Positions 1 to 32,000 of a stretch of DNA of 32,000 nucleotides are shown piece by piece. The notes under the pieces are model-generated. The model made no database searches. It saw only the letters and a program-made list of their open reading frames with translations, and was not told the origin of the DNA. Numbering within the stretch: the stretch's first letter is position 1; every line of letters begins with the position of its first letter. The stretch spans positions 30,001-62,000 of the forward strand of contig NZ_CP094965.1 in the NCBI RefSeq assembly GCF_022985615.1, written 5' to 3'. A program made the translations under genes and the position numbers. The DNA is from Candidatus Karelsulcia muelleri. GTDB taxonomy: Bacteria; Bacteroidota; Bacteroidia; Flavobacteriales; Blattabacteriaceae.

Positions 1-1318
1 TCTTTACTTTATATTTGTTTTTAAATTTAATTTGAATCGGGATTCCAATTAGATCAAAATTAGACCTTATTTTTTTTTCTAGAAATCTTTTATAAGACCT
101 AGGAATAAGTTTAGGATTATTGCTAAAAAAAAGGAATTTCTTAATACCTTTTTTTAAAATTGGTACGCAATATTTTATAGAAAGATTTCTACCATTACTT
201 AAATTTATTGTTTTTTTTTTTAATATCGGAAGCATAATTTTATTAAAATAACTTGTATTTATTTTTTGTTTTTGCTTTTTTATTATACTTATTGCTTGAT
301 TAAAAGCTTTAATAATATTTTGTTTGGAAAAATTAGATGTGAAATATATTGGCAGATCTGTAAATGGATAAATTTTTTTAATAATATTTTGTTTTAAATT
401 TTGTAAAATACTCTTTTTTTTAATAAGATCACATTTATTAATTAATATAATAATACCTTTAAAGGTATTTTTAATAATTTTAAATATCTTTATATCTTGT
501 TTTTGAAACCCTATTTTAGTATCTATTATTAAAAAACATAAGTCAGAATTGTAAATTGCTTGAGTCGTTCGAAGAAATGAAAAGTATTCGAGATCTTCCT
601 TTTTTCTTTTCTTTTTTATTATCCCAGCAGTATCAATCAAAATACATTTAAAATTAAATTTATTATAAATTACTTCTATGCAATCCCTAGTAGTACCTGG
701 AAGATCACAGACTATGCTTTGATTTTTATTTAATAAGGTATTAATTAAAGATGACTTGCCTACATTTTTCCTTCCTACTAAAGTAATCCTAGGTAAATTG
801 TAATTTTTTAATTTAATTAATATTTCTTTTTTATTAGAAAAAATATAATTTAATAATTCGTTAACCCCTTGTCCAGTTGAACCAGATAAAAAAAAATAAT
901 CATTAAATCCTAATTTTAAAATATCTTGTATTTCATAAATATCTGATTTATATTGATCAATTTTATTAACAGCTAGAAAAACTTTTTTTTTTGATCTTTG
1001 TAAGATATTAGATATCTTATAATCTATAGGTAATATTCCAGATAAAATATCTATTACAAATATTACATCGGTTGATTCTTCAATAGCAAATAAAAATTGC
1101 TCACATATTTTAATTTGTAAATCTTTCTTTCCAATTACATATCCTCCAGAATCTATCAGAGTAAACTTATTACCTTTCCATTTACAATCACAATATATCC
1201 TATCTCTGGTAACTCCACTCGAATAATGAGTAATTGCTTTACGGTAGCCTGCTAAATAATTAAAAAGGGTAGATTTTCCTACATTAGGCTGGCCTACTAT
1301 AGAAATTATTTTTTTCAT
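1..1318 (-). CDS. der: GTPase Der (EngA); C-terminus runs off the left edge
   Basis: Own reverse translation from ATG (complement of 1316-1318): MKKIISIVGQPNVGKSTLFNYLAGYRKAITHYSSGVTRDRIY... It has two GTPase domains (GQPNVGKS / GRKNVGKS, DSGG / DTAG, NKID / NKCD) and a KH-like tail (...IPRSYKRFLEKKIRSNFDLIGIPIQIKFK). The frame stays open to base 1. It is absent from the ORF track, probably because it has no stop in the window. Confidence 0.9.
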   Translation of the reverse strand, partial: MKKIISIVGQPNVGKSTLFNYLAGYRKAITHYSSGVTRDRIYCDCKWKGNKFTLIDSGGYVIGKKDLQIKICEQFLFAIEESTDVIFVIDILSGILPIDYKISNILQRSKKKVFLAVNKIDQYKSDIYEIQDILKLGFNDYFFLSGSTGQGVNELLNYIFSNKKEILIKLKNYNLPRITLVGRKNVGKSSLINTLLNKNQSIVCDLPGTTRDCIEVIYNKFNFKCILIDTAGIIKKKRKKEDLEYFSFLRTTQAIYNSDLCFLIIDTKIGFQKQDIKIFKIIKNTFKGIIILINKCDLIKKKSILQNLKQNIIKKIYPFTDLPIYFTSNFSKQNIIKAFNQAISIIKKQKQKINTSYFNKIMLPILKKKTINLSNGRNLSIKYCVPILKKGIKKFLFFSNNPKLIPRSYKRFLEKKIRSNFDLIGIPIQIKFKNKYKVK

Positions 1319-1345
1319 GACTAGTTGAAAAAATTAATAATTTAA

Positions 1346-1510
1346 ATTAAAATTCCGATTGTAGGTACTGGGAATATTGGTGGTGCTTGTGCAAGTTTAA
1401 TAGCTGCTAAGGATATAGTTAATAATATTATTTTGTTAGAATATGGTTTAAATAATGTTTTCTTAGGTATCCCAGTAATTTGAGTAAAAAAAGGAATATT
1501 ATTGAATTAA
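1346..1510 (+). pseudogene. mdh: Collapsed malate dehydrogenase relic (N-terminal Rossmann segment joined to a C-terminal segment, with an internal stop)
   Basis: Own translation: IKIPIVGTGNIGGACASLIAAKDIVNNIILLEYGLNNVFLGIPVI*VKKGILLN*. The first ~33 aa resemble the flavobacterial Mdh N-terminus as I recall it (KVxxVGAGxVGxxCA...VVLLDI). The end resembles the C-terminal ..IGVPxxIGKNGVE.. segment. About 250 codons are missing, there is no ATG, and a TGA lies at 1481-1483. Confidence 0.6.
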
Positions 1511-1540
1511 AACTTAATAAAGAATTTAATTAGATAATAT

Positions 1541-2389
1541 TTAAATAATATGTTTATAGGCATTATAAGAACTTCTAACTAATGGATTGCTTTCAACATA
1601 TAAAAAGCCCATTTCTAAAGCTAGATTTTTGTAGTATTTAAATTTATGAGGCGTAATAAAGCTTTGAACTGGGTAATGTTTTGAAGTAGGGGCTAGATAT
1701 TGACCTATTGTTAATATATCAATATTGGCTTTTTTTATAGCTTTCAAAGTATTTATTACTTCTACTTCTGTTTCACCTAATCCTAGCATAATACCAGTTT
1801 TAGTTCTTATGTCGCTTTTTTTTTTTATATATTTTAAAATAGATAAGCTTCTATCATATTTAGCCTGAATACGTACTTTTTTTGTTAATCTAGGTACAGT
1901 TTCTAAATTATGAGAAATAATTTCTGGGTGTTCCTTAATTATTAGTGCAATTTTTTTTTTATGCCCTTTAAAATCTGGTATTAAGGCTTCTATAGTCGAA
2001 TTAGAGATTTTTTTAATTTCTCTTATTGTTTTAATCCATATTTTTATTCCCATATCTTTTAAATCATCTCTATTAACTGAAGTCAAAACAACGTGTTTAA
2101 TTTCCATTTTTTTTACTGTCTTTGCAATTTTATAAGGTTCTAACACATTTATTTTTTTAGGTTTTCCAGTTTTTATCGCACAAAATTTGCAAGATCTAGT
2201 ACATATATTTCCTAATAAAAGAAAACTTAACACTCCATTTTTCCAACAAATTCCAAGATTAGGACAATCACTACTTTTACAAATTGTATTTAAGCTTTCT
2301 TTTATTAGTAAATTATTAATATTATCATACTTTCCTCCAATCGGTAATCTAACTTTTAACCAAATTGGTTTATTTTTATTAAAATTCAT
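1541..2389 (-). CDS. lipA: Lipoyl synthase
   Basis: 282-aa track ORF with the CPNLGICW and radical-SAM CTRSCKFC motifs, collinear with LipA. Confidence 0.95.
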   Translation of the reverse strand: MNFNKNKPIWLKVRLPIGGKYDNINNLLIKESLNTICKSSDCPNLGICWKNGVLSFLLLGNICTRSCKFCAIKTGKPKKINVLEPYKIAKTVKKMEIKHVVLTSVNRDDLKDMGIKIWIKTIREIKKISNSTIEALIPDFKGHKKKIALIIKEHPEIISHNLETVPRLTKKVRIQAKYDRSLSILKYIKKKSDIRTKTGIMLGLGETEVEVINTLKAIKKANIDILTIGQYLAPTSKHYPVQSFITPHKFKYYKNLALEMGFLYVESNPLVRSSYNAYKHII

Positions 2390-2416
2390 AATAAATAAAA
2401 CCTCATAATAAGAAAA

Positions 2417-3199
2417 ATGAAAACTAATTCAAGGATTGAATCCCAATTAAAATACATATATAGATTACAATTAATTCATTTGCGTTTGAAATATTTAAAT
2501 TATATAATAAATAGATTTCCAGTCTTTATTATAAGATTTCTTTTGTTTTTAAAACAAAAAAAAAGATATCTATTCTTTTTAACACAAAGACTAAAAAATA
2601 AAAAAAAACTTTTAAGAAGTAATTCAAAATTAAATATATATAAAAAAAAAATTATACAACTTTTAAAATTACTTCCAAAGCAAAAAAAATTACTTCCAAA
2701 GCAAAAACTAAAACTAAAGAAGTTGGAGATGGATATAGAATATAATTATATTAATTTTCTTTTAAAAAAAAGAAGAAATTTAAAGAAAAAGAATAACTTG
2801 ATTATTAATTCAATAAAAATCAAACAAATTAAAAAATATATTAGGATTAAAGAACTCAGATTTAAAAGTAAAATTATAAATTATAAACAAAAAAAAGAAA
2901 AAATTAATAAAAAGATTATCTTTTTAAAAGAAATTGAAAAGAAAATAAAAAAAAAGATTAATAACAATTTATTAAAAAGATATAAACAGATTATTTCTAT
3001 AAGTGGAATAGCAGTAGTCCCAGTTTATAAAAAGATACCATTTGGTACATATATATTAATTACTCAACAAAAATATTATGAATTATTAGAAAGAAAAAAA
3101 ATAATTATTGAAGAAATTAGTGGGAGAATACTAATAGATTTTTATTTAGCTAATAAAGAAAATAATAATATGAAGAAAATATTATTTAATTTTTATTAG
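2417..3199 (+). CDS. COG1579/DUF164-like coiled-coil protein with a degenerate C4 zinc ribbon
   Basis: The N-terminus (IESQLKYIYRLQLIHLRLKYLNYIINRFP) and the C-terminus (LLKRYKQIISISGIAVVPVYKKIPFGTYILITQQ...IIIEEISGRILID) are collinear with the COG1579 pattern (..LYDLQLID.RI.. / ..RYE.IR...G.AVV.V....C.GC...P.Q......I..C..CGRIL.). All four expected Cys positions are substituted. Confidence 0.55.
   Translation: MKTNSRIESQLKYIYRLQLIHLRLKYLNYIINRFPVFIIRFLLFLKQKKRYLFFLTQRLKNKKKLLRSNSKLNIYKKKIIQLLKLLPKQKKLLPKQKLKLKKLEMDIEYNYINFLLKKRRNLKKKNNLIINSIKIKQIKKYIRIKELRFKSKIINYKQKKEKINKKIIFLKEIEKKIKKKINNNLLKRYKQIISISGIAVVPVYKKIPFGTYILITQQKYYELLERKKIIIEEISGRILIDFYLANKENNNMKKILFNFY
2669..2707. repeat. 21-bp tandem duplication, in frame (LLPKQK x2)
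   Basis: ttacttccaaagcaaaaa occurs at 2669 and again at 2690, inside the COG1579-like CDS. Confidence 0.9.
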
Positions 3200-3273
3200 A
3201 ACTTTTTTTTTTCTTTTTAAAACTCTAAAGCCAATTTTTCTTATTTATTTTGGATGGATTATATGTACGTTTC

Positions 3274-3560
3274 ATACTATACTATACTATACTATACTAT
3301 ACTATACTATACTATACTATACTATACTATACTATACTATAAATAAATAGAATACTATAGTATAGTATACTAATACTAATTATACTAATAGATAATAGAT
3401 AGTATAGTATACTAATACTAATACTAATACTAATAGATAATAGATAATACATTACATTATAATAGATAGTATAGTATACTAATAGTAATACTAAGACTAC
3501 TAAGACTAAGACTAATAGTAATAGTAATAGATAGATAGTATACTATTACTATTACTATAA
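3274..3560. repeat. Composite satellite block: (ACTAT)13, then mosaics of ATAGT, TACTAA, TAGATAA, TAAGAC, TAGTAA and TATTAC units
   Basis: A perfect (actat)13 spans 3276-3340. From 3355 onward short arrays of other units follow, including the reverse-complement unit atagt and the higher-order block aatagatagtatagtatactaata seen twice (about 3394 and 3472). The block ends 17 bp before the peroxiredoxin ATG. Confidence 0.95.
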
Positions 3561-3576
3561 ATAGTATTAATTATAT

Positions 3577-4206
3577 ATGAATACTTTAATAGGAAAAAAA
3601 GCTCCAAATTTTAAGGCGACAGCAGTTTTAAATGGAAATTCAATAGTAAATAATTTTACTTTAGAAAACTTTATAGGCAAGTACGTAGTTTTATTTTTTT
3701 ATCCTAAAGATTTTACTTTTGTATGTCCCACTGAATTACATTCGTTTCAAGAAAAAAAGGATATTTTTTGCAGAAAAAATGTTAAATTAATAGCCGTTTC
3801 TATAGATTCTGAATATACCCATTTAGCTTGGTTACAAATTTCGAAAAAAAAAGGTGGAATTAAAGGAGTAAATTTTACTATAGTTTCTGATATAAATAAA
3901 ACTATTTCTTATTCGTATGGTGTTTTAAGTGGTAATTGGAAAATTAATAAAAAAGCTGAATTAAAAGTTAAAGGAGGTGAGTTAATCGCCTATAGAGGTT
4001 TATTTATAATAGACAAAAAAGGAATTATAAGACATCAATTGATAAATGATTTCCCTTTAGGAAGAAATGTAGACGAGGTAATTAGAATAATAGATGCTTT
4101 GCAATTTTTTGAAACACATGGTGAAGTTTGTCCTGCAAACTGGAAGACGGGAGAAAAAGGTATTAAACCTACTAAAGATGGAATAATTAATTATTGGAAT
4201 GAATAA
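3577..4206 (+). CDS. ahpC: Typical 2-Cys peroxiredoxin (AhpC/Tsa family)
   Basis: Peroxidatic motif FFYPKDFTFVCPTEL and resolving-Cys motif GEVCPANW. 209-aa track ORF. Confidence 0.9.
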   Translation: MNTLIGKKAPNFKATAVLNGNSIVNNFTLENFIGKYVVLFFYPKDFTFVCPTELHSFQEKKDIFCRKNVKLIAVSIDSEYTHLAWLQISKKKGGIKGVNFTIVSDINKTISYSYGVLSGNWKINKKAELKVKGGELIAYRGLFIIDKKGIIRHQLINDFPLGRNVDEVIRIIDALQFFETHGEVCPANWKTGEKGIKPTKDGIINYWNE

Positions 4207-4394
4207 TTAATTAATTAATTATTGTAATGAATAATTAATTAATTATTGTATTGTATTGTAATGAATATTATATTATATTATTGTAATGAATAATTAATTA
4301 TTGTAATGAATAATTAATTATTGTATTGTATTGTATTTGTATTGTATTGTAATGAATATTATATTATATAATTAATTATTGGAATAATTAATTA
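4184..4394. repeat. Array seeded on the 3-prime end of the peroxiredoxin CDS, plus an (ATTGT)n microsatellite
   Basis: The last codons plus stop (attattggaatgaataattaatt, from 4190) recur as attattgtaatgaataattaatt at about 4219, 4277 and 4297. They are interleaved with attgtattgtattgta and atattatattatat blocks. A final aattaattattggaataattaatt copy abuts tRNA-Leu. Confidence 0.85.
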
Positions 4395-4477
4395 TACCTG
4401 GAGTGGGATTTGAACCCACAAGATTTTTAATCACTGAATTTTGAGTTCAGCGTGTCTACCCATTTCACCATCCAGGC
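4395..4477 (-). tRNA. tRNA-Leu (anticodon CAA), class II, no encoded CCA
   Basis: Reverse complement: gcctgga-tg-gtgaaatgggtagacac-g-ctgaa-CTCAAAA-ttcag-(variable arm gattaaaaatc)-gtggg-ttcaaat-cccac-tccaggt-a. This folds as a cloverleaf with a long variable arm. Confidence 0.9.
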
Positions 4478-4481
4478 TATA

Positions 4482-4565: not shown

Positions 4566-4568
4566 AAA

Positions 4569-4658
4569 TTATTTCTTTTTATGTCTATTTTTTCGGCTTT
4601 GTTTTTTTCTTTTATGTGTTGCTATTTTTTTTCTTTTTCTTTTTTTGCCATTTGGCAT
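4569..4658 (-). CDS. 29-aa Lys/Arg-rich ORF, candidate small ribosomal protein (bS22-like)
   Basis: Own translation of the reverse strand: MPNGKKRKRKKIATHKRKKQSRKNRHKKK*. The ATG is the complement of 4656-4658 and the TAA is the complement of 4569-4571. It is below the track size cutoff. The KKRKRxK..HKRKK pattern resembles the small basic bS22 family as I recall it. The stop is 3 nt from the tRNA-Leu(UAG) 5-prime end. Confidence 0.5.
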   Translation of the reverse strand: MPNGKKRKRKKIATHKRKKQSRKNRHKKK

Positions 4659-4943
4659 TTTAATAAAAAATTTTTAGTTATTAATTAATTATTTAATTTT
4701 ATTTACTATTTAAACTACTGTAAATTGACTAGCTTTAATTTTATTAATTTAAATTACGTTAATAATAAATTTATTTATTTTAGAAAATTGTCCAGTATTT
4801 TCTTCTATCACTACTTTTTACAAAGTCTTTATTTACATTTATGAAGTAAATTCAGATGATGACTTTAAAGAATTACTATAATTTAATAATTAATTACTAG
4901 AATTTAAGAATTTAAAGAATAAGGGAAATTGTTTACCAATCAG

Positions 4944-5900: not shown

Positions 5901-5965
5901 TGGTTTTCTTACATTAGAAAATTAATAAGATAAAATAATGGTTTTGTTAAAAAAAAAACTAATAT

Positions 5966-6019
5966 TAGTGTATAGTGTATAGTGTATAGTGTATAGTGTA
6001 TAGTGTATAGTGTATAGTA
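5966..6019. repeat. (TAGTGTA)7 heptamer array
   Basis: Seven perfect tagtgta units span 5966-6014, followed by a degenerate unit. The array sits in the divergent trpS/frr spacer. Confidence 0.95.
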
Positions 6020-6039
6020 TAGAAAATAAAAAAAGAGAA

Positions 6040-6573: not shown

Positions 6574-7893
6574 ATGTGCAATACGATAAGATCTATTTTA
6601 AAAAAAAATACGAATTTAATAAACAAAAAAATAGTTGTAAATGGGTGGGTAAAACATATAAGATCAAATAAATTAAAAAAGTTTGTGATAATAAACGATG
6701 GTTCAACCATAAGAAATTTACAAATTATAGTAAAAACTGAAAACCGAAAACTTAATAGAGGGACTTTTTTAAAAGTAAAAGGCAAAATAGTATTAAGCAA
6801 AGGCAATAAACAAATTATTGAGCTTTTAGCAAAAAACATAATAATCTATGGCTTATTCAAAAAGAAAGATTTTCAAAAGACCATATTGCAACCGAAAAAA
6901 CATAGTTTTAATAAATTAAGACAACAAGCTTATTTAAGATTTCGTACTAATTTATTTAGTACAATAATGAGGGTTAGACATAATGTCTCTTACCTAATTC
7001 ATAAATATTTCAATAAAAGGGGGTTTTATAATATTCAAACCCCTATAATTACTAATTATGATACAGAAGGGCATAGTAACCTTTTTAAGGTAACTACTTT
7101 AAAGTCAGATTTTTTTGGAGAAAAGGCATTTTTAACAGTTTCTGGACAATTGCATGGTGAATCTGCTGCATTAGGTTTAGGAAAAATTTATACTTTTGGC
7201 CCTATTTTTAGAGCCGAAAATTCAAATACTCCTAGACATTTGGCAGAATTTTGGATGGTAGAACCAGAAGTAGCTTTTTTTAATTTAAAACATAATATGT
7301 ATTTAGCTGAGCATTTTATTAAATATATACTTAAAAATATTATTAAATTATCTTATGAGGATTTATTATTTTTGGATAAAGAAAATAAAATATTTAATAA
7401 TATTAATTTAATATTAAAGAAAGAATTTAAAAGAATAACTTACTCAAAAGCCATTAAAATTCTAAGTAAAAATGGGTATAAAATTAAATGGGGAAAAGAT
7501 TTAAAGTCAGAACATGAAAAATTTTTAGTAGAAAATTATTTTAATTCCCCGATAATTATATTTGATTATCCAATTGATTTAAAACCATTTTATATGAGAA
7601 TAAATAAAGACAAGAAAACAGTATCAGCAATGGATATTATTTTTCCATCTGTTGGTGAAATTATTGGGGGTTCACAAAGAGAAGAAAGATATAAAATACT
7701 ATTATCACAAATTAAATATTTTAAATTAAAAAAAAAAGATCTAGAATGGTATATTAATACTCGAAAATTTGGAACTGTTCCACACAGTGGTTTTGGATTA
7801 GGTTTTGATAGACTAATTCAATTCATTACAAATATGAAAAATATAAGAGAGGTAATACCATTTCCAAGATCTCCCAAAAATATTTATACATAA
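6574..7893 (+). CDS. asnS: Asparagine--tRNA ligase
   Basis: 439-aa ORF with an OB-fold N-terminus (GWVKHIRSNK..FVIINDGS) and class II motifs (FRAENSNTPRHLAEFWMVEPE, GFGLGFDRL). Confidence 0.95.
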   Translation: MCNTIRSILKKNTNLINKKIVVNGWVKHIRSNKLKKFVIINDGSTIRNLQIIVKTENRKLNRGTFLKVKGKIVLSKGNKQIIELLAKNIIIYGLFKKKDFQKTILQPKKHSFNKLRQQAYLRFRTNLFSTIMRVRHNVSYLIHKYFNKRGFYNIQTPIITNYDTEGHSNLFKVTTLKSDFFGEKAFLTVSGQLHGESAALGLGKIYTFGPIFRAENSNTPRHLAEFWMVEPEVAFFNLKHNMYLAEHFIKYILKNIIKLSYEDLLFLDKENKIFNNINLILKKEFKRITYSKAIKILSKNGYKIKWGKDLKSEHEKFLVENYFNSPIIIFDYPIDLKPFYMRINKDKKTVSAMDIIFPSVGEIIGGSQREERYKILLSQIKYFKLKKKDLEWYINTRKFGTVPHSGFGLGFDRLIQFITNMKNIREVIPFPRSPKNIYT

Positions 7894-8606: not shown

Positions 8607-8914
8607 GGGGCTGATTTGGTTTTGACATCAAGTAAATATAATAAGATAGCATATCGTGAAATGTAATGTAATCACGTAAAAAATTCCTTACAAAAAACTA
8701 AATGGCAAAAATTACTCTCTTAAGCTTGCAGCTTAAAAATTTTGTTCTAATTTAATTTTGTTCTAATTTTGTTGTGTCTAATTTTAGGGCTTATAACTAA
8801 AATTAGAACTTACTACTTTATAAGCTAACTTTATAAGCTAACTTTATAAGCTAAATATGTAGAACTCTTATTATATTACTTGTTTGGACACGGGTTCGAT
8901 TCCCGTCAGCTCCA
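8607..8914 (+). ncRNA. ssrA: tmRNA (SsrA), tag reading frame 8704-8736
   Basis: The 5-prime ggggctgatttggttttgac and the 3-prime ggacacgggttcgattcccgtcagctcca form the tRNA-like domain. The internal frame ggc aaa aat tac tct ctt aag ctt gca gct taa encodes GKNYSLKLAA*, with the typical ..LAA end. No CCA is encoded. Confidence 0.9.
8815..8853. repeat. 13-bp x3 perfect tandem repeat inside the tmRNA
   Basis: actttataagcta occurs at 8815, 8828 and 8841, downstream of the tag ORF in the pseudoknot region. Confidence 0.9.
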
Positions 8915-8955
8915 TAAAATGTCCCATAAAGATAAAATGTCCCATAAAGATAAAG
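8914..8955. repeat. 18-bp x2 (+6) tandem duplication starting at the last base of the tmRNA
   Basis: ataaaatgtcccataaag occurs at 8914-8931 and 8932-8949, followed by ataaag and then the rpsF ATG at 8956. Confidence 0.85.
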
Positions 8956-11674: not shown

Positions 11675-11714
11675 AGGTCCATATTCATATGAAAAGGTCC
11701 ATATTCATATGAAT
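11675..11714. repeat. 20-bp x2 tandem duplication containing the palindrome ttcatatgaa
   Basis: aggtccatattcatatgaa occurs at 11675 and 11695, in the convergent gltX/rplY spacer. Confidence 0.85.
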
Positions 11715-11718
11715 AGTC

Positions 11719-12000
11719 TTAGTCTTTCTTTCTTTTACTGACTTTACTTTGACTTCTTAGTCTTTGACTTCTTAGTATTTGACTTCTTAGTCTTAGTCTT
11801 TGACTTAGTCTTTGACTTAGTCTTTGACTGAGTCTTTGACTGAGTCTTTGACTGAGTCTTTGACTGAGTCTTTGACTGAGTCTTTGACTTTGACTGAGTC
11901 TTTGACTGAGTCTGAGTCTTTGACTGAGTATTTGACTGAGACTGAGTCTGAGACGTCTTCTGAGACGTCTGAGTCTGAGACTGAGTATGAGTCTTTGATT
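11719..12000. repeat. 12-bp minisatellite family (TCTTTGACTGAG and variants)
   Basis: tctttgactgag x5 is perfect at 11821-11880. It is flanked by variant units (tctttgacttag, tcttagtc, tctgagac) from about 11719 to 12000. Confidence 0.9.
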
Positions 12001-12553
12001 GAGGAGTTTCAATAATCTGTTTAACTGTAGAGATAACTGTATTAGAGTCATGTAATATTACTATTTTTTTTGGAGGTATATTTTTTACATAATAATTTTC
12101 TCCTATATCTAAATTGTCAATATTAATCTCTATATGATCTACCATATTCTTAGGTAAAGCCTTAATTTTTAATTTTCGGATTTTCGATATATATTCCCCA
12201 CCTTTATAAACTCCTTTGGCTTTCCCTATTGGTCTAATAGGCACTTCATAAGTAATATACTTTCTAGGGTTTAATTCCAAAAAATCTAAATGCAGGATTT
12301 TTTCTGTAATTGGGTTATATTGGATTTCTTTTAATATAGTAGTAATATTGATTTTATTGTTTATAGATACTATAAATTGGCTTAATGTGTTATTTTTAAT
12401 TATTTTTTCTACTAAATAAGTATCCAAAACAAATTTAATGTTTTTATTCTTCCCATACACTATTCCAGGCGTGTAACCAGATTCTCTTAAACTTTTTATA
12501 TGTTTTTTATTTACAATTACTCTTTTTTCTACTTTTAAAATGATTCTTTTCAT
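11744..12553 (-). CDS. rplY: 50S ribosomal protein L25 (Ctc type) with a repeat-encoded Ser/Lys/Thr/Gln tail
   Basis: The N-terminal ~185 aa (MKRIILKVEKR...GYTPGIVYGKNKN...HLDFLEL...) are collinear with bL25/Ctc. The last ~85 aa are SKTQ-type low complexity encoded by the 12-bp array. Confidence 0.85.
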   Translation of the reverse strand: MKRIILKVEKRVIVNKKHIKSLRESGYTPGIVYGKNKNIKFVLDTYLVEKIIKNNTLSQFIVSINNKINITTILKEIQYNPITEKILHLDFLELNPRKYITYEVPIRPIGKAKGVYKGGEYISKIRKLKIKALPKNMVDHIEINIDNLDIGENYYVKNIPPKKIVILHDSNTVISTVKQIIETPQSKTHTQSQTQTSQKTSQTQSQSNTQSKTQTQSKTQSKSKTQSKTQSKTQSKTQSKTQSKTKSKTKSKTKTKKSNTKKSKTKKSK

Positions 12554-12609: not shown

Positions 12610-12680
12610 GGTACTGTGGCCGAGTGGTTAGGTAAAGGTCTGCAAAATCTTTCACAGCAGTTCGATTCTGCTTAGTACCT
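12610..12680 (+). tRNA. tRNA-Cys (anticodon GCA), no encoded CCA
   Basis: ggtactg-tg-gccgagtggttaggt-a-aaggt-CTGCAAA-atctt-tcac-agcag-ttcgatt-ctgct-tagtacc-t. The U73 discriminator is as expected for Cys. Confidence 0.85.
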
Positions 12681-12705
12681 TTTATTTGCTTAGTACCTTT
12701 TATTT
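12670..12705. repeat. 18-bp x2 perfect duplication covering the last 11 nt of tRNA-Cys plus 7 nt of trailer
   Basis: gcttagtaccttttattt occurs at 12670-12687 and 12688-12705. Confidence 0.9.
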
Positions 12706-12715
12706 AACGGGAGAG

Positions 12716-13114
12716 ATGATATATTTTTCTTTTTACTATAAGTTTTCATTTAAAAAAAAAATAGAAAAAATATTACGATATGAAAAAAGTAATTTTATAA
12801 AAATTATTTATATTTTTTGCAATAATAAATATATTTCTACTCTAAATTTTTTTGTTTTCAAAAAAACAAAATTGACTGATGTTATTACATTAAAAAAGAC
12901 GGATCGCAACAAAAAAAAAGTAGGAGAAATTTATATAAATATTGATATGATAAAATTTAACTCTATTGTCTTTAAAAAAACATTTTATGAGGAATTAAAA
13001 AGAGTAATGATACATGGAGTATTACATTTAATTGGTTACGAAGATAATAATAAGCAAATTGCTGAAAAAGAAAAGTTTTATTTATGTCCTCATTATGTCC
13101 TCAAAAAGATTTGA
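12716..13114 (+). CDS. ybeY: rRNA maturation endoribonuclease YbeY
   Basis: It has the metal-binding motif MIHGVLHLIGYED and the ...EKEKFYL C-terminus. The ATG at 12716 is preferred over the track TTG at 12686, which lies in the tRNA-Cys duplication. Confidence 0.85.
   Translation: MIYFSFYYKFSFKKKIEKILRYEKSNFIKIIYIFCNNKYISTLNFFVFKKTKLTDVITLKKTDRNKKKVGEIYINIDMIKFNSIVFKKTFYEELKRVMIHGVLHLIGYEDNNKQIAEKEKFYLCPHYVLKKI
13082..13103. repeat. 11-bp x2 perfect duplication across the mnmG start codon
   Basis: ttatgtcctca occurs at 13082-13092 and 13093-13103. Each copy carries an ATG (13084 and 13095). Confidence 0.9.
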
Positions 13115-19603: not shown

Positions 19604-19709
19604 TATAATACCTGGTATAATTAATACCTACCACCTAATACCTGGTACCTGGTACCTAATACCTGGTACCTGGTACCTAATACCTGGTACCTGGTACCTA
19701 ATACCTGGA
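19604..19709. repeat. 21-bp minisatellite (CCTAATACCTGGTACCTGGTA) x3.6 plus degenerate lead-in
   Basis: Perfect copies lie at 19634, 19655 and 19676, with a partial copy at 19697-19709. Degenerate copies (tataatacctggtataattaataccta) span 19604-19633. Each unit contains GGTACC palindromes. Confidence 0.95.
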
Positions 19710-22700
19710 ATATATTTTTTAATTGCTATGTAAACTTTTTTGTTATTTACATAACAATAGAAATTTATCTTTCTTTTATTTAAGATTACTTCTTTAACTA
19801 AAGCCTCAGTGCTTATATTTTTATAATATTTTTTTATAGTTATTAAAAACATCTCATCCTCACTGTTAATATACACGACTATTCTCTGAGTAACAGTAAA
19901 GCCTTTTTTCTTTCTCAAATTTTGAATTACTTTTATTAAATCTCTTAATAAGCCTTCTAAAATTAATTTCTTCGTGAGTTGTGAGTCTATTCCAACAATG
20001 AAATCTTGATTAATACTTAATTTCCAGAAGTTTTTGGGTTTGTAATCTATTATAAATTCTTTTATAGATAGCTTAAATCTTTTATTATTTATATTTATAT
20101 CTATATTTTCTTTTATTTCTAACTTATTCTTATTTGTTTTTATATAAGAATTTATCAAATTAATATCTCTTTTATATTTTTTTCCTAATAAATTATAATT
20201 AGGTTTTATATCAATTGTTGCTATCTTATTAAGATTTTGTTTTATTTTAATTTTATTTACATTAACTTCATTTTTAATTAAATTTAAGATATCTTTAGAT
20301 AATAAGATATTATTAGACTCTTTTTTAAGTAGAATAATTGCTTTGGTTAATTTTTGTCGAACTTTAAGATTATTTGTTTTTCTAAGAAATAATATTTTTG
20401 AAGTAATATTTTGTGCTAATTTCATTCTCTTTTCTAGAGATTTATCTACTAATTTCTTTCTATAAAGAGGAAATTTAACTAGATGTACACTTTCATAAGG
20501 TTCTTTTTTTTTTATATTGAGATTATTATAAAATTTTTCCATAAAAAATGGGGCAATAGGTGAAGAGATTTTAAATATAGTAATTAAACAAGTATAAAGG
20601 GTTTTATAAGCGTTAATCTTATCTTCATTATAATCATTTTTCCAGAACTTTCTTCTAGAAAGCCTAATATACCAATTACTTAAATCAAAAATTACAAATT
20701 TTTCTATTTTTTTTGCTACTTTAAAAATGTTATATTTTTTATAATAGATTGATATATCTTTTATTAAAGTATTTAATTTAGAAATTATCCATTTTTCTAA
20801 TAACTTTAGATTTTCTATTTTAAGTTCTATTTCATTGGGGAAAAAATTATCTATATTTGCATATAAAGCAAAGAAAGAATATGAATTAAATAAAGTACCA
20901 AAAAACTTTTTTGTTACCTTTTTTATTCCTTTTTCATCAAATTTAATATTTTCCCAGGATTTAGAATTAGAGATTAGATACCATCTAATAGGATCAGAAC
21001 CATATTTTTTTAATAGTTTTATTGGATCAATTGTATTTCCCTGATTTTTAGACATTTTTTTACCTAATTTATCTAAAATTAAACCATTGGAAATGGCCGT
21101 TTTAAATGCAATAGAATTCGAAATTAGAGTAGAAAGAATATGCAAAGTAAAAAACCACCCTCTAGTTTGATCTACACCTTCACAAATAAAGTCAGCTGGA
21201 ATATTTATTTTATTTTCTATTAATTTTCTATTCTCAAAAGGATAATGTAGTTGTGCATAAGGCATTGCCCCGGAATCAAACCAAACATCCACAATTTCGG
21301 GTTCTCTTTTTAGTGGTATTTTTTTTTTAGAGACTAAGATAACTTTATCTAAAGTATGTTTATGAAGATCTATTTTTGAATAATTTTTTCTTTTCATATT
21401 TCCAATTCTAAAATCTTCAAATGGATTTTTTTTCATATATCCAGCATCAATTGATTTCTCTATTTCCTTAATTAATTCTTCAATTGAGCCTATTATTTTT
21501 TCTTCTTTATTTGCAGTTGAACGCCAAATTGGTAATGGAATTCCCCAATATCTACTTCTAGAAATATTCCAATCTTTTAAATTTTTTAACCAATTTTCGA
21601 ATCGTTTAATCCCTGTACTTTTTGGTATCCAATTAATTAATTTATTTAATTTAATTAATTTGTTTTTATATTTGCTGGTTTTAATAAACCAAGAACTTAT
21701 TGGATAATATAATATTGGGGCTTTAGTTCTCCAACAATGTGGATAAGAATGGATATGCTTGCCAATTAGAAAAATTTTCTCTTCTTTTTTTAAATATAAA
21801 GCGATTTTAAAATCAGTTGATAAATCGTTTGATAATGATTTTTCTTTATTATTTTCATATTCTTTTTTAATAAATTTTCCACTAAATAGTGGATGTAAAT
21901 TTTTTATAAATTTACCTTTATTATCTACTAAAGGGATTAAAGTATTTTTTTTCCCCTTTATCATCATCATAGGAATTTTGTTTTTTTTAGCCAATTCAAA
22001 ATCTTTTTCACCAAAACACGGAGCAATATGCACAACTCCTGTCCCTTCTGATTCACTGACGAAATCTCCATCTATGTCTCCATCTATGATTTTAAAAGCT
22101 TTTTCACAACCTTCATAAGGTTTTTTCCAAGTAATAAGTTGCTCATACTTTGTATCCAAAAGTACTTTCCCCTTAAAGGTTTTAATAATTTTATATGGAA
22201 TTTTATTATTCTTTTTTTTAAATAAAGTAATTTTTTTCTTTCTATTTCTTAGAAAAAAAAAGCCACTATCTAAAGTTTTAGATATTGTTTTCTTAGAAAG
22301 AATTATATTTATTTTTTTTAATGTATAAGGATTATAAGTATTTATTAAAACATATTCTATATTTCTTCTTATTGCTAATGCAGTATTAGATGGTAGTGTC
22401 CAAGGTGTAGTCGTCCATGATAATATATATATATCATCTTTAATATCATCAAATTTACAAGATAGAGTGTTTTTCTTAATTTGGAATTGAGCTATTACTG
22501 TAGTATCTGTTCTGTTTTTATAACAACCTGGGTAATTTAATTCATGTGTACTTAAACCAGTTCCAGCAATTGGAGAATAAGGTTGAATTTTAAAATCTTT
22601 ATAAAGATTATTTTGATTATATATTTTTTTTAATAACCACCATACTGTTTCTATATATTTTGTATCATAAGTAAAATATGCCTTTTTGAAGTCTAACCAA

Positions 22701-23122: not shown

Positions 23123-23139
23123 TTTTTATTTTTATTTAT

Positions 23140-23835
23140 ATATTCTTCTTATTCTAAGTCTAAGTCTTCTAAGTCTGTCTTCTAAGTCTGTCTTCTAAGT
23201 CTAAGTCTTCTAAGTCTGTCTTCTAAGTCTAAGTCTAAGTCTTCTAAGTCTGTCTTCTAAGTCTGTCTTCTAAGTCTGTCTTCTAAGTCTTCTAAGTCTG
23301 TCTCTGTCTTCTACTTACTTATTCTACTTTCTACTTTACTTTCTACTTACTTACTTATTCTACTTACTTATTCTACTTACTTATTCTACTTACTTATTCT
23401 ACTTACTTATCTTATCTTATTCTACTTACTTATTCTACTTTACTTTCTATTCTACTTACTTACTTACTTATGTTTGTACTTTACTTTGTACTTGTACTTG
23501 TACTTACGTCTAGACTAAGATAATTAAAGAAAGATAAAGATAATTAGAAGTAGAATTAGAATTCTTATAATTATTAGAATTATTAGAATTCTTATAATTA
23601 TTATAATTAATTATTAGAATTATTATAATAATTAATTAATTAATTAATTAATTAATTAATTAATTAGGAATTAGGAATTAGGAATTAGGAATTAGGAATT
23701 AGTTTTTTTCCTTTAGTTTAGTTTAGTTTAGTTTAGTTTAGTTTAGTTTAGTTTAGTTTAGTTTAGTTTAGTTTAGTTTAGTTTAGTTTAGTTTAGTTTA
23801 GTTGAAACAAACAAAACAAAACAAAACAAAAAAAT
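23140..23835. repeat. About 700-bp spacer built from at least eight abutting tandem arrays
   Basis: In order: the TCTAAGTC/TGTCT family (about 23152-23310); the TTCTACTTACTTA 13-mer family (about 23306-23470); GTACTT (about 23474-23506); the ATTAGAATT/CTTATAATT family (about 23545-23625); (AATT)3+6 (23629-23665); (AGGAATT)5 (23666-23700); (TTTAG)18 (23712-23801); (AAAAC)n (about 23805-23827). Confidence 0.95.
23712..23801. repeat. (TTTAG)18 perfect pentamer array
   Basis: 18 uninterrupted tttag units, ending 42 bp before the grpE ATG. Confidence 0.95.
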
Positions 23836-23843
23836 AGAAACAA

Positions 23844-24428
23844 ATGCAAATGAATAACAAGAATCATCAAATTAAAAAGAACAACAAAAAAAAATCACTT
23901 TTATTAAAACTAATTAAATATATTGAACATAGTAATATTAAAAACAAAGAAAAAATCATAAAATTAATGTTAAACTTTAATAATTATAAAAAAAAGAAAA
24001 TTAATAAATTAATAGGAATTCTTGCTGAATTTGAAAATTATAAAAAACGTATAGAAAAAAACAAAAAGCTAATAATAGAAAATGCTAATAAAAACTTATT
24101 ATTAGAATTGCTAAGTTTAGCAGAGGATTTTAATAGATGCTTTAATAGCAAGAAAGAGAAAGATAGCAAGAAAGAGAAAGATAGCAAGAAAGATAAGGAA
24201 GGAATAAAAATAATAAATAGAAAATTATGGAACCTTTTAAAAAAAGAAGGGATAAAAAAAATCAAATCGAAAAAAGGAGATGTTTTTAATACAGATATTC
24301 ATGAAGCCGTATCAATACAAACTATAAAAAAAACTGAATTGAAAGGAAAAATATTACACATAATAGAATCAGGATATAGTTTTAAAAACAAAATAATTAA
24401 ATATACTAAAGTAATTGTAGGAAAATAA
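23844..24428 (+). CDS. grpE: Nucleotide exchange factor GrpE
   Basis: ...LAEFENYKKRIEKNKKLIIENANKNLLLELLSLAEDFNRC... and the C-terminal ...FNTDIHEAVSIQ...GYSFKNKIIKYTKVIVGK are collinear with GrpE. It lies immediately upstream of dnaJ. Confidence 0.9.
   Translation: MQMNNKNHQIKKNNKKKSLLLKLIKYIEHSNIKNKEKIIKLMLNFNNYKKKKINKLIGILAEFENYKKRIEKNKKLIIENANKNLLLELLSLAEDFNRCFNSKKEKDSKKEKDSKKDKEGIKIINRKLWNLLKKEGIKKIKSKKGDVFNTDIHEAVSIQTIKKTELKGKILHIIESGYSFKNKIIKYTKVIVGK
24147..24195. repeat. 18-bp x2.7 in-frame tandem repeat (SKKEKD SKKEKD SKKDKE) in grpE
   Basis: agcaagaaagagaaagat occurs at 24147-24164 and 24165-24182, with a partial third copy. Confidence 0.9.
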
Positions 24429-27810: not shown

Positions 27811-27852
27811 ATAGTAACTTTCTTCTTCAGATTAATAGTTTCTTCCTATTCC

Positions 27853-27921
27853 TATTACTATTACTATTACTATTACTATTAAAGATTAAGATTTTTATTT
27901 CTTCTTAATCTTAATCTTAAT
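27853..27921. repeat. (TATTAC)4.8, then an aagattaagat / atcttaatctt inverted repeat and (CTTAAT)3 running into the def ATG
   Basis: The tattac array spans 27853-27881. cttaat x3 spans 27904-27921. The 11-bp perfect inverted repeat has arms at 27882-27892 and 27908-27918. Confidence 0.9.
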
Positions 27922-28700: not shown

Positions 28701-28703
28701 ATA

Positions 28704-28910
28704 TTATAATAATAATAATTTTTTTATTTTATTTTTTAGATAATTTTTGATTATCTCTAAATTAGATAATCTTCTTTTCCTTTTATTAGATTTTTTAGTT
28801 AATATATGATTTTTAAAAGCTTTTTTTCTTTTGAGTAAACCCTTACTGGTTATTTTAATTCTTTTTTTTAAACTTGATTTCCTTCTTAATTTCTTTTTTT
28901 TTATTTTCAT
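28704..28910 (-). CDS. rpmI: 50S ribosomal protein L35
   Basis: ...KKRIKITSKGLLKRKKAFKNHILTKKSNKRKRRL matches the bL35 core. It sits between infC and rplT. Confidence 0.9.
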   Translation of the reverse strand: MKIKKKKLRRKSSLKKRIKITSKGLLKRKKAFKNHILTKKSNKRKRRLSNLEIIKNYLKNKIKKLLLL

Positions 28911-28920
28911 TTAGTTTCCT

Positions 28921-29475
28921 TTAGTTTAGTTTCTGTACTTTAGTTGTAGTTGTATTTGTATGTGAAACTTTAGGTATTAATACTATAAACATTTTTTTTT
29001 CTTCTATTCTTGGTGGAATTTCTACTTTTGTAATATTACTAAGTAGTTCAATACATTTTAATAACATTTTTTCTCCTAAATATTTGTAAAATATCCCTTT
29101 CCCTTTAAAAAAAATATAAAATTTAACTTTATTATTAGATTTTAATATTTTTTTAGCATTTTCTATTTTAAACGATAAATCATGTATATTAGTCTGAGAA
29201 GTTAGTCTTATTTCTTTAGTCAAAATTACATTTTTTTTATATTTTTTTTTCATTTTTTTTAAGTTATATAAAAATTTACTAAAATTCATTGCTTTACAAA
29301 TTGTCGGAGTAACTTTTGGATTAATTTCTACTAAATCTAGAGAAAGATCTTTGGCTATTTTTAAAGCTTGTTTTAATGGGTAAACTTTTGGTTTAATGTT
29401 TTTTCCAACTAATCTGACTACTTTTGATCTTATTTCAGAATTTATTTTATATTTTATTTTTTTTTTTATTCTCAA
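28921..29475 (-). CDS. infC: Translation initiation factor IF-3 (non-ATG start)
   Basis: ...INSEIRSKVVRLVGKN...LDLVEINPKVTPTICKAMNFSKFLY...MFIVLIPK is collinear with IF-3. The track start codon is TTG (complement of 29473-29475) and no in-frame ATG is nearby. It has the usual infC-rpmI-rplT order. Confidence 0.9.
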   Translation of the reverse strand: MRIKKKIKYKINSEIRSKVVRLVGKNIKPKVYPLKQALKIAKDLSLDLVEINPKVTPTICKAMNFSKFLYNLKKMKKKYKKNVILTKEIRLTSQTNIHDLSFKIENAKKILKSNNKVKFYIFFKGKGIFYKYLGEKMLLKCIELLSNITKVEIPPRIEEKKMFIVLIPKVSHTNTTTTKVQKLN

Positions 29476-29537
29476 ATTTTTTATTTTTCTTATTTTTCTT
29501 GATAAGATTAGTCTAGCTTTTAGCTGACGGGTTGTTT

Positions 29538-31415
29538 TTATTTAACCTCTTCATAATCTACATCTTGTACTTGTGAATCACTAGATTTTTTTTCTTTATT
29601 TATATTATCGGTTTCGTTTTTATTAAAAATTTCTTGTGAAGTTGCCCAAAATTTATTAATCTTCTCAACATATTTATCAATATCTATAAAGTTTTTATTA
29701 CTTGTAGCTTTTTTTAATTTTAATAAATAAGTTTCTATATTTTTTAGTTTGTCAGGAGTTAATTGTTTTCCATATTCTTTAATATATTTCTCAGATTGAA
29801 AAATTAATGTATCCGCATAATTAATTTGATCGATTTCTTTTTTCAATTTTTCGTCTCTTTCATAATTTTTTTCGGCCTCTTTTTTCATTTTTTCTATATC
29901 TTCTTTGCTTAAACCAGAAGAAGCTTGAATTCTAATTCTTTGTTCTCTTCCAGTTCCTTTATCTTTAGCAGAAACATTTAAAATACCATTAGCATCTATA
30001 TCAAAACATACTTCTATTTGTGGTATACCTCTAGGAGCTGGAGGAATGTCAACTAAATCAAATTGCCCAATTTCTTTATTATCTTTAAATAGTGGTCTTT
30101 CTCCTTGTCCCACTTTAACTGTTACAGCTGATTGGTTATCAATTGCTGTAGAAAATATCTCTGATTTTCTAGTTGGTATTGTAGTGTTAGATTCTATTAA
30201 TTTAGTAAAAACACCTCCTAAGGTTTCTATTCCTAAAGACAATGGAGTTACATCTAATAATAAAACATCTTTTATATCACCTGCTAATACTCCACCTTGA
30301 ATAGCAGCACCAATAGCTACGACTTCATCTGGATTAACACCTTTTGAAGGTACTCTTTGAAAAAATTTCTCTACTTCTTCTTGAATTTTTGGTATTCTAG
30401 TTGATCCCCCTACTAAAATAACTTCATTTATATCTTTTACTTTTAAATCTGCAGCTTTTAAAGCATCTTTACAAGGCAAAATAGATCTTTTAACTAATTG
30501 ATCAGATAACTCTTCAAATTTTGCTCTAGTTAAGGTTTTAACTAAATGTTTTGGTCCAGTTGCTGTTGCAGTTATATAAGGTAAATTAATTTCTGTTTTA
30601 GTACTAGAAGAAAGTTCAATTTTGGATTTTTCTGCTGATTCTTTTAGTCTTTGATGTGCAATAGGATCATTCCCAAGATTTATTCCTTGTTCTGCTTTAA
30701 ATTCTTTTATTAACCAATTGATTATAATTTTATCAAAATCATCTCCACCGAGATGAGTATCACCGTTTGTTGATAATACTTCAAAAACTCCATCTCCCAA
30801 TTCAAGAATTGAAATGTCAAAAGTTCCACCACCTAAATCATAAACTACTATTTTTTTATTTTTATTCTTTTTATCTAAGCCATAAGCTAAAGCAGCTGCT
30901 GTTGGCTCATTGATTATTCGTTCTACTTCTAGTCCAGCAATTTCACCAGCCTCTTTAGTGGCTTGACGTTGGGAATCATTAAAATATGCTGGTACTGTAA
31001 TTACTGCTTTAGTCACTTTATATCCTAAGTAATCTTCTGCAGTTTTTTTCATTTTTTGAAGTATCATTGCAGATATTTCTTGTGGAGAATATAATTTTTT
31101 CTCTATTTTTACTCTTGGAGTATCGTTTTCACCTTTAATAATTTCATAGGGTACATATTTTAATTCTTCAATTACTTCAGAATATTTTCTTCCCATAAAA
31201 CGTTTAATAGAGAATATAGTATTTTTAGGATTAGTTACTGCTTGGCGTTTAGCTGGATCACCTATTTTCATTTCTCCTCCTTCTTCAATAAAGGCTATTA
31301 TAGATGGAGTTGTACGTTTGCCTTCAGAATTTGGTATAACAGTTGGACCATTTACTTCAATAACTGAAACACAAGAATTAGTAGTACCTAAATCTATACC
31401 TATTATTTTATTCAT
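29538..31415 (-). CDS. dnaK: Chaperone DnaK (Hsp70)
   Basis: [18 protein letters not shown]..., [26 protein letters not shown]. 625 aa. Confidence 0.97.
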
Positions 31416-31460
31416 GTTAAATTCAATTAATTTTTTAATTAATAGACTTAATTATATTAT

Positions 31461-31617
31461 ATATAATATAATATAATATAATATAATATAATATAATATA
31501 ATATAATATAATATAATATAATATAATATAATATAATATAATTAATTATATAATTAATTATATAATTAATTATATATAATATTAAGATTAATATAATATA
31601 ATATAATATAATATAAT
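31461..31617. repeat. (ATATA)16, (ATTAATTATATA)3, then (ATATA)n again
   Basis: A perfect period-5 array spans 31461-31540. A 12-bp x3 array spans 31541-31576. A second period-5 run spans about 31591-31617. All lie in the divergent dnaK/rplM spacer. Confidence 0.95.
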
Positions 31618-31652
31618 CGTATTTAAAAATCAAAATAAAATTATATCAGACA

Positions 31653-32000
31653 GTGAAAAAACCAATTAATTGGTATATTTTTAATGCCTTTAATAAAACT
31701 CTAGGACGTTTAGCATCTGTTATTGCTTGTAGCATCTGTTATTGCTTGTATAATTATTGGAAAACATCAAATTAATTTTTCTAAGTTGTGGAGATAAAGT
31801 TATTATTATTAACGCTAAACATATTCTTTTAGGGAGTAAAACAAATAATAAAACCTATATTAGTTATAGTGGATATCCAGGAGGTAAAAAAGTAAAGAAA
31901 GTATCTGAATTAATAAAAAAAAGACCAGAATTTCTAATTAGAAAAGCTGTATTAGGTATGTTACCTAAAAATTCTTTTAAAAAAAAAATAAAAAATTTAT
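31653..32000 (+). pseudogene. rplM: 50S ribosomal protein L13 gene, split over three reading frames as assembled; runs off the right edge
   Basis: Own translation. The coordinate mod 3 = 0 frame from GTG 31653 gives (M)KKPINWYIFNAFNKTLGRLASVIAC, then nonsense and a TAA at 31773. The mod 3 = 1 frame over 31732-31785 gives ASVIACIIIGKHQINFSK. The mod 3 = 2 frame from 31787 gives CGDKVIIINAKHILLGSKTNNKTYISYSGYPGGKKVKKVSELIKKRPEFLIRKAVLGMLPKN... Concatenated, these segments are collinear with uL13. Confidence 0.7.
31712..31749. repeat. 19-bp x2 perfect tandem duplication inside rplM (out of frame)
   Basis: agcatctgttattgcttgt occurs at 31712-31730 and 31731-31749. Confidence 0.95.

Follow-up and report, generated by a model that had tools for sequence, protein, structure and literature searches.

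The 32,000 nt stretch analysed here (the window; positions 30,001 to 62,000 of contig NZ_CP094965.1, Candidatus Karelsulcia muelleri, hereafter Sulcia) carries arrays of short tandem repeats in most of its spacers, in the 3′ ends of several genes and within the transfer-messenger RNA (tmRNA) gene. These arrays are a derived, lineage-specific expansion, seen in some Sulcia lineages and nearly lacking in others. Very probably they are the product of a neutral, high-rate process of local tandem duplication and replication slippage that arose in some planthopper Sulcia lineages, including the clade found in Pyrops hosts to which the window belongs.

Tandem repeats in the window exceed chance

Arrays were counted with Tandem Repeats Finder (TRF) at a score of at least 50 and a period of at least 2, and again in a stricter set with a score of at least 80. 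They cover 2,671 bp (8.3%) of the window at the lower threshold and 1,964 bp at the higher, compared with 136 ± 69 bp and 5.6 ± 19 bp, respectively, in 100 dinucleotide-preserving shuffles. The top array scores 262, and the maximum over all shuffles is 93. Short units therefore stand head to tail well beyond chance, as in variable-number tandem repeats (VNTRs), and the stricter total agrees with the 2 kb or so that had been estimated in an earlier reading of this DNA (the sequence-only reading). By the gene map, intergenic DNA makes up 3,036 bp, or 9.5% of the window, and arrays occupy 51.5% of intergenic bases vs. 3.8% of genic bases, which is the intergenic concentration of repeats in a reduced genome described for Portiera of the whitefly Bemisia tabaci (Portiera BT).

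Exact arrays were defined after Sloan & Moran (total length at least 18 bp, unit up to 40 bp), with the added requirement of at least 2 copies. There are 63 in the window, with units of 4–34 bp and none with units of 1–3 bp. Examples are ATACT (×13.6), TTTAG (×18.4), ATATA (×16.4), TAGTGTA (×7.6) and a 21-mer (×3.6), and the units of 4, 5, 6, 7, 12, 13, 20 and 21 bp, many of them perfect, that had been picked out by eye are all represented. Higher-order periods of 34–75 bp also occur.

Ordinary AT-rich low complexity, or the decayed remains of pseudogenes, might be thought to produce such a pattern by no special process: the G+C content is only 23%, and the spacer at 1319–1540 has the appearance of a malate dehydrogenase gene in decay. 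This explanation has next to no probability, and is refuted by the shuffles together with the lineage comparison given below. Dinucleotide-preserving shuffles give 20 times less coverage, equally AT-rich loci of other Sulcia (L009, L010, L011 and L014) are almost without multi-copy arrays, and the pseudogene-like spacers are the very ones that lack arrays.

Arrays in the intergenic spacers

Nine spacers are longer than 100 bp. Four consist of 75–91% array (hyp260/ahpC, ahpC/tRNA-Leu, ileS/grpE and dnaK/rplM), three of 25–38% (trpS/frr, gltX/rplY and ilvE/def), and two are array-poor, with none in der/lipA (1319–1540) and 11% in tRNA-Leu/trpS (4567–4943). The sequence-only reading had listed eight array intervals, and repeats were found at every one; its description of the long spacers as almost wholly arrays fits the first four of the nine and overstates the other five. 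It had also taken 19604–19709 for a spacer, which is mostly the 3′ coding end of ileS, and had given 11675–11743 as a spacer array, overlooking that the repeats run on as a 273 bp array into the 3′ end of rplY. The arrays that lie in or next to spacers are as follows.

3274–3557, composite array in the hyp260/ahpC spacer (3200–3576; 75% array): perfect ATACT ×13.6, then blocks of ATACTA, TAATAGA, TAAGAC and TACTAT
4184–4351, array in the convergent ahpC/tRNA-Leu spacer (4207–4394; 77% array), with TATTG and TAAT runs
5966–6018, perfect TAGTGTA ×7.6 in the divergent trpS/frr spacer
8914–8954, perfect 18 bp duplication (×2.3) filling the tmRNA/rpsF spacer
11675–11713, perfect 20 bp repeat (×2) in the convergent gltX/rplY spacer
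12669–12705, perfect 18 bp duplication (×2.1) that includes the last 12 nt of tRNA-Cys
23144–23843, chain of abutting arrays in the 721 bp divergent ileS/grpE spacer (23123–23843; 91% array)
27846–27921, CTATTA ×6 and TCTTAA ×3.2 in the divergent ilvE/def spacer; 6–12 bp longer in the sister genomes
31420–31617, ATATA/TATAA ×16–34 and a 12-mer ×3.4 in the divergent dnaK/rplM spacer

Several of these show how arrays are built. Downstream of ahpC, the repeats are copies of the last 16–21 bp of the gene itself (ATTATTG[G/T]AATGAATA), at 4190, 4218, 4277 and 4297. In the composite array upstream of ahpC, ATACT units face AGTAT units, giving it the potential to form a hairpin. The ileS/grpE spacer contains the longest chain, made up of blocks of TTCTAAGTCTGTC (about ×11), TTCTACTTACTTA (about ×13), TTGTAC (×5), ATTAGAATT (×9), TAAT (×9.5), AATTAGG (×5.9), TTTAG (×18.4) and AAACA (×5).

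The units are local. No 7-mers with at least two G/C were common to arrays of different window loci, and a k-mer comparison excluded a dispersed or mobile repeat family; AGTCT-like motifs only seemed to recur, and units derive from the adjoining sequence. A CRISPR array was likewise rejected, as the copies are contiguous, without spacers, and the neighbouring genes are all housekeeping genes.

The arrays are lineage-specific

The ileS neighbourhood was compared with those of seven further Sulcia genomes, and the mutS–grpE neighbourhood with those of three, giving two independent regions. The loci are L001 and L012 (CP094964) and L006 (CP094963), both from sister Pyrops Sulcia; L007 (CM132423); L008 and L013 (CM132438); L009 (CP110505); L011 and L014 (CM132418); and also L010, DICMUL and CARI.

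The lineages fall into an array-rich and an array-poor group. Compared with the 8.3% of the window, TRF coverage is 6.7–7.2% in the sister Pyrops loci, 6.3% in L007, 5.0% in L008 and 4.7% in L013, whereas it is 1.8% in DICMUL, 2.0% in L009, 3.6% in CARI, 0.9% in L011 and 0.16% in L014, and most of what remains in the array-poor lineages is two-copy, AT-rich noise. Arrays of at least three copies account for 3.9–6.0% of the sequence in the array-rich group (three lineages) and for 0–0.3% in the array-poor group (four lineages); exact arrays number 11–20 and 0–3.5 per 10 kb, respectively. The G+C content is alike across all compared lineages, and homopolymer counts are not raised in the array-rich ones.

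Where arrays are lacking, the corresponding spacers are also shorter. The dnaK/rplM spacer is 194–237 bp long in the Pyrops clade and 149 bp in L013, vs. 78 bp in the array-free L014, and the ilvE/def spacer is 109–127 bp vs. 57 bp in L014, indicating that the arrays have lengthened these spacers and did not merely settle in long ones already present. Orthologous spacers in L014 are two to three times shorter; Portiera BT likewise has arrays derived in one lineage and intergenic regions expanded relative to its sister lineages. The sequence-only reading had proposed that it would fail if related genomes had spacers of the same length filled with unique sequence, and no excess over AT-rich chance; instead, the related spacers without arrays are shorter and the excess is well above chance.

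The window and the loci L007, L008 and L013 have unrelated array units, and arrays were seen in five independent assemblies. Both points bear on the possibility that arrays, or the differences between strains, are assembly or polishing artefacts of AT-rich, low-complexity DNA. The Pyrops genomes were assembled from Nanopore reads by Canu and polished with medaka and Pilon (PMC10333215), arrays longer than Illumina reads are not reliably polished, and the frame-broken rplM described below could be an error. An artefact is nevertheless very unlikely to account for the pattern, because arrays lie at the same loci in all three Pyrops assemblies and, built of different units, in two more lineages that come from a separate study. 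The array-poor DICMUL, CARI and L009 come from other projects, but the accession of L011 and L014 is of the same series as those of the array-rich L007 and L008. Many of the arrays measure under 100 bp and are perfect, those in coding DNA keep the frame, and unique sequence differs by only 0.15–0.4%.

If the arrays were functional, they might set promoter spacing or DNA curvature, or act by their copy number as 'tuning knobs' or contingency loci for grpE-dnaJ, dnaK, ileS and ahpC. Four of the array-rich spacers (trpS/frr, ileS/grpE, ilvE/def and dnaK/rplM) are divergent and so contain promoters, arrays adjoin chaperone genes, and array lengths vary from strain to strain as they do at contingency loci. 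However, arrays are present in divergent, co-directional and convergent spacers alike, and convergent ones are filled just as well (ahpC/tRNA-Leu to 77%, and gltX/rplY too). The units are wholly different in the other array-rich lineages and absent from array-poor lineages with the same genes, and those in coding DNA lie in frame at 3′ tails rather than switching frame near start codons. No motif of the Bacteroidetes −7 type (TAnnTTTG) precedes these genes; a scan upstream of every window gene gave no useful match, and no such motif was located near any array. A functional role is quite unlikely on this evidence. The sequence-only reading had offered spacing, curvature or promoter architecture as an alternative, which finds no support, given that arrays also fill convergent spacers, turn over in unit from one lineage to another and are free to vary in length.

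Array length varies between near-identical genomes

The window was aligned to L001 over 15.1 kb and to L006 over 22.3 kb. Unique genic sequence differs by 1.5 and 4.1 substitutions per kb, respectively, and the alignments contain 24 and 45 indels, nearly all of them in or beside tandem repeats and many of them exact copies of the adjoining sequence. Copy number thus varies between close genomes while the flanks are conserved, as is characteristic of VNTRs, and the very active slippage that had been suggested from the sequence gains direct support. For example, the ileS/grpE spacer is 721 bp long in the window, 831 bp in L001 and 625 bp in L006, and the dnaK/rplM spacer 237, 194 and 196 bp. Proteins change in length as well: IleRS has 1164 aa in the window, 1150 aa in L001 and 1143 aa in L006, and GrpE has 194, 208 and 215 aa in the three Pyrops genomes.

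Relative to L006, 17 of the 24 genic indels are multiples of 3, vs. 7 of the 21 intergenic ones (Fisher p = 0.017), which fits one mutational process acting everywhere and a selective filter in coding DNA. A corresponding comparison of the exact arrays, of period-of-3 units in coding and intergenic DNA, gave no significant difference (p = 0.17).

Unequal homologous recombination or gene conversion between copies, rather than polymerase slippage, could be the main source of these changes. Some large length events (52, 77 and 118 bp), the higher-order periods of 34–75 bp and the position of the largest array at an inversion junction (see below) would all suit recombination, and repeats correlate with structural variation in Portiera of Bemisia (PMC3673631). 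Most events, on the other hand, involve one or a few units of 5–21 bp, and new two-copy duplications have appeared in unique sequence (in rplM, holB and ileS), where recombination would have had no template. Recombination is accordingly considered unlikely as the main source, and slippage following local duplication the better account.

Arrays within genes

Coding arrays have units of 12, 15, 18, 21 or 24 bp and are found at 3′ tails or as in-frame duplications. These, together with the arrays of the tmRNA gene and two other duplications, are listed here.

8738–8854, plus strand, arrays in the tmRNA gene (8607–8917): 16 bp ×3.0 and perfect 13 bp ×3.1, downstream of the tag reading frame
11731–12003, minus strand, 12 bp array at the rplY 3′ end: AGTCTTTGACTG and variants, about 15 copies, 273 bp
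13082–13103, plus strand, perfect 11 bp duplication (×2) in the overlap of the ybeY 3′ end and the mnmG start; not in L006
17315–17345, plus strand, perfect in-frame 15 bp duplication (×2.1) in holB; not in L006
19625–19708, minus strand, perfect 21 bp array (×3.6) at the ileS 3′ end, encoding PGIRYQV repeats
24145–24193, plus strand, perfect in-frame 18 bp array (×2.7) in grpE, encoding KEKDSK repeats; 42 bp longer in L001 and 18 bp longer in L006
28008–28057, plus strand, perfect in-frame 24 bp duplication (×2.1) in def (ENMFNTLL twice)
31711–31750, plus strand, perfect 19 bp tandem duplication in rplM (31653–32000)

Translation of the rplY array gives ribosomal protein L25 an S/K/T/Q-rich tail of about 65 aa. 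The tail is confined to the Pyrops clade, and in L006 it is shorter by 20 aa (L25 of 249 aa, vs. 269 aa in the window). The ileS gene also carries a 12 bp in-frame duplication. In L007, a different array, a perfect 7 bp ×13 (21726–21818), lies in the stretch from rpsF to rpmA that should contain tmRNA, although the gene was not mapped there.

Some events are old and fixed, since the 24 bp duplication in def is common to the Pyrops Sulcia and L013 (18840–18889) and is not in the array-free L014. It could serve as a shared-derived marker joining the array-rich lineages.

The rplM gene has both gained and lost sequence. Besides the 19 bp duplication, it is without 5 bp (CCACA) near 31782 that are present in L001 and L006, at a site within a small hairpin (CTCCACA...TGTGGAG). 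The net gain of 14 bp puts the gene out of frame compared with L001 and L006, in which it is intact, and the ORF ends after about 46 aa. Either this is a true pseudogene of an essential ribosomal protein (L13), or it is an assembly error.

A proposed mechanism

A scheme that would account for these observations begins with stretches of 4–40 bp being duplicated in place, often the last or first bases of a gene or the 3′ end of a tRNA. Local seeding of this kind is visible downstream of ahpC, where the 3′ end of the gene has been copied at least four times, and at tRNA-Cys, the 3′ end of which is duplicated. The duplicated stretches would then grow, shrink and mutate, giving chains of variant units. 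Selection would purge most genic events, so that arrays collect in spacers, C-terminal tails, tolerant parts of tmRNA and in-frame duplications. The outcome would be spacers two to three times longer and a genome larger by several kb.

In Escherichia coli, loops of about 1–4 nt are dealt with by MutS-dependent repair, and tandem-repeat instability and duplication increase when replisome processivity or flap processing is defective. By analogy, the process in Sulcia may be replication slippage with loops that exceed the size open to MutS-type mismatch repair, and this would account for the lack of units of 1–3 bp. The missing 1–3 bp units and normal homopolymers would then reflect a working mismatch repair, and the excess of longer units a change at the level of the replisome; the presumed trigger is an alteration of the replisome or of flap processing.

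Loss of mutS was considered as a cause and ruled out, as array-rich and array-poor genomes alike encode a full-length MutS with all five domains. The holB and dnaX genes are present in the Pyrops clade, and dnaN is present in the array-rich L007 and L008. Deng et al. (PMC10333215) report holA to be a pseudogene in two of the three Pyrops Sulcia. Arrays occur in the window and in both sisters, taken here as the three published genomes, and holA is intact in one of these, so its decay cannot be the sole trigger.

Several points weigh against a neutral duplication and slippage process as set out here. As regards a trigger, MutS is retained, dnaX, holB and dnaN are present in the loci compared, and holA is intact in one Pyrops genome. 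Slippage and unequal recombination are not distinguishable by sequence alone. Arrays longer than about 150 bp could carry copy-number errors, these being Nanopore assemblies with Illumina polishing, and arrays in promoter regions may have regulatory side-effects. Finally, the repeat load of the Pyrops clade was seen in part of the genome, about 47 kb out of some 156 kb.

The largest array block lies at an inversion junction

A Pyrops-specific inversion of about 43 kb was described by Deng et al. (PMC10333215). In the other lineages (L007, L008, L009, L010 and L011), ksgA adjoins ileS across a spacer of 176–247 bp with no array, and in the array-free L014 (21626–22505) grpE adjoins dnaB. In the Pyrops clade, by contrast, the gene facing ileS is grpE, and the largest array block, of 625–831 bp, lies between the two. 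With ksgA/ileS and grpE/dnaB as the ancestral neighbours, the spacer at 23123–23843 represents one of the two inversion junctions. No Pyrops KsgA, sought as a guide to the second junction, was found among homologues or cluster members. Either the arrays caused the inversion or they colonised the junction afterwards; L007 and L008 are array-rich, yet retain the ancestral gene order at ileS.

Comparison with known repeat systems

The closest parallel is Portiera BT, in which short tandem repeats with a 7 bp spike proliferated in expanded intergenic regions, accompanied by rearrangements (Sloan & Moran 2013, PMC3673631). Like the Pyrops Sulcia, it is a tiny, AT-rich obligate symbiont in which one lineage has abundant intergenic microsatellites and longer spacers than its sister lineages. 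In both, recent indels are nearly all changes in repeat units. Repeats are associated with rearrangement in Portiera BT and may be so in the Pyrops Sulcia, where the largest array block lies at one inversion junction. The two differ in that Portiera BT has a sharp 7 bp spike and about 30% non-coding DNA, whereas units in the Pyrops Sulcia range over 4–34 bp and about 9.5% is non-coding. Portiera BT has lost dnaQ, mutL, dnaN, dnaX, holA, holB, ruvC and ssb, whereas the Pyrops Sulcia keep mutS, dnaX and holB, and L007 and L008 keep dnaN. Arrays in coding tails and in tmRNA are found in Sulcia, unlike Portiera.

Repeats have also been reported within the genus. In leafhopper Sulcia, length variation within hosts is documented at about four hypervariable microsatellite loci (Waneka et al. 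2021, PMC7952229), and a 6 bp repeat in Karelsulcia atpB turns over in populations (PMC13345377). Units of about 6 bp, length heterogeneity and allele turnover are shared features; the scale differs, with about four loci per 190 kb genome in leafhopper Sulcia and about 20 exact arrays per 10 kb, or 5–8% of the sequence, here. The view of the sequence-only reading that reduced symbiont genomes are essentially repeat-free has to be qualified by exceptions, namely Portiera BT (PMC3673631) and the few microsatellites of leafhopper Sulcia (PMC7952229, PMC13345377).

Contingency loci of Haemophilus, Neisseria and Mycoplasma resemble the present arrays in having repeats that slip at a high rate in promoters and coding regions. 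At such loci, a unit that is not a multiple of 3 in the 5′ part of a reading frame, or a repeat between the −35 and −10 elements, turns a specific surface or restriction gene on and off by altering its frame or promoter spacing, and selection maintains the repeat. The coding arrays here lie instead in frame in the tails of housekeeping genes, arrays occur in every type of spacer, and nothing about them is conserved. The tandem-repeat-rich mitochondria and plastids of plants and algae, and Nasuia (PMC5533117, PMC7952229), are likewise reduced, AT-rich and polyploid with variable non-coding arrays, but Nasuia has one dedicated repeat region and the arrays here are dispersed over most spacers.

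The process is therefore already known in kind. Its new aspects are the host lineage in which it occurs, its scale, the wide span of unit sizes, the spread of arrays into coding tails and tmRNA, and the fact that MutS has been kept. Sulcia is a textbook example of a slow-evolving, collinear, gene-dense symbiont genome, and this would be a second natural example of instability of the Portiera type, with array-free close relatives available for comparison. Since such relatives exist, the cause of minisatellite instability in a minimal replisome is testable by comparative genomics. The genome paper on Pyrops Sulcia (PMC10333215) and a 63-genome planthopper survey (PMC12992758) describe Sulcia genomes as gene-dense and conserved, and tandem arrays are unmentioned in their open-access full text.

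Taken together, the observations permit a broader and more tentative reading, which has somewhat less than an even chance of being right: that several planthopper Sulcia lineages have independently entered a Portiera-like, repeat-accumulating and unstable mode while keeping MutS, with arrays that add about 10 kb, rewrite C-termini and tmRNA, break rplM, and gave the substrate for the inversion of about 43 kb. If it is true, comparison of array-rich with array-free lineages, both of which are represented in the set of 63 published genomes, should reveal what makes units of 4 bp or more unstable, be it the replisome, flap processing or replication proteins supplied by the host.

The arrays also have practical consequences. 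Short-read assemblies of Pyrops Sulcia are fragmented (PMC10333215), which arrays would explain, and they inflate comparisons of genome size between lineages. They create length-variable proteins (L25, IleRS and GrpE) and possible pseudogenes (rplM), and offer fast-evolving markers for population studies of symbiont and host.

Gene content and other features

The window encodes compactly ordered housekeeping genes, namely der, lipA, ahpC, trpS, frr, asnS, rplU-rpmA, tmRNA, rpsF-rpsR-rplI, gltX, rplY, ybeY, mnmG, glnS, holB, lepA, ileS, grpE-dnaJ, mnmA, ilvE, def, rplT-rpmI-infC, dnaK and rplM, together with five tRNA genes. The window IleRS is 98% identical to Karelsulcia muelleri proteins, and IlvE is identical to the copy in CP094964.1, a genome of 155,888 bp. 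Deng et al. 2023 (PMC10333215) published Sulcia genomes of three Pyrops planthoppers (Fulgoridae); the window differs from both CP094964 and CP094963 and is probably from a third genome closely related to these. Neighbouring genes meet with 0 bp between them at frr/asnS and at the convergent mnmA/ilvE, and overlap by ATGA at rplI/gltX and holB/lepA. These abutting and overlapping genes, together with the IleRS and IlvE matches, confirm the streamlined, symbiont-type genome that had been recognised from the sequence.

Further arrays were noted in the sister locus L012 (1609–6774 and 8602–8795). They flank the gap of a presumed rRNA operon and include one of 266 bp with a 36 bp period, inside the queA 3′ end, and others of 179 bp and 124 bp before dnaX. 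An 88 bp repeat (×2) lies between clpP and clpX. In L008 (6423–7792) no rho gene was called, and the gap at its expected place holds arrays (7666–7805); lepA is absent from L007 (13017–14320).

The two long array-poor spacers yielded no RNA gene in permissive Rfam searches. The der/lipA spacer (1319–1540) contains, on the plus strand at about 1340–1500, a stretch whose translation is similar to the NAD-binding N-terminal part of malate dehydrogenase (a weak match, E 4e-5), and is probably the remnant of a decayed mdh gene. Directly past tRNA-Leu, on the minus strand at about 4575–4665, is a very basic ORF of 29 aa (MPNGKKRKRKKIATHKRKKQSRKNRHKKK) that has no Pfam or NCBIfam match and may be a small ribosomal-type protein, unannotated here. 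The lysine-rich ORF of 260 aa at 2417–3199 (plus strand) has no family match, and contains a perfect 21 bp duplication (×2) at 2665–2707.

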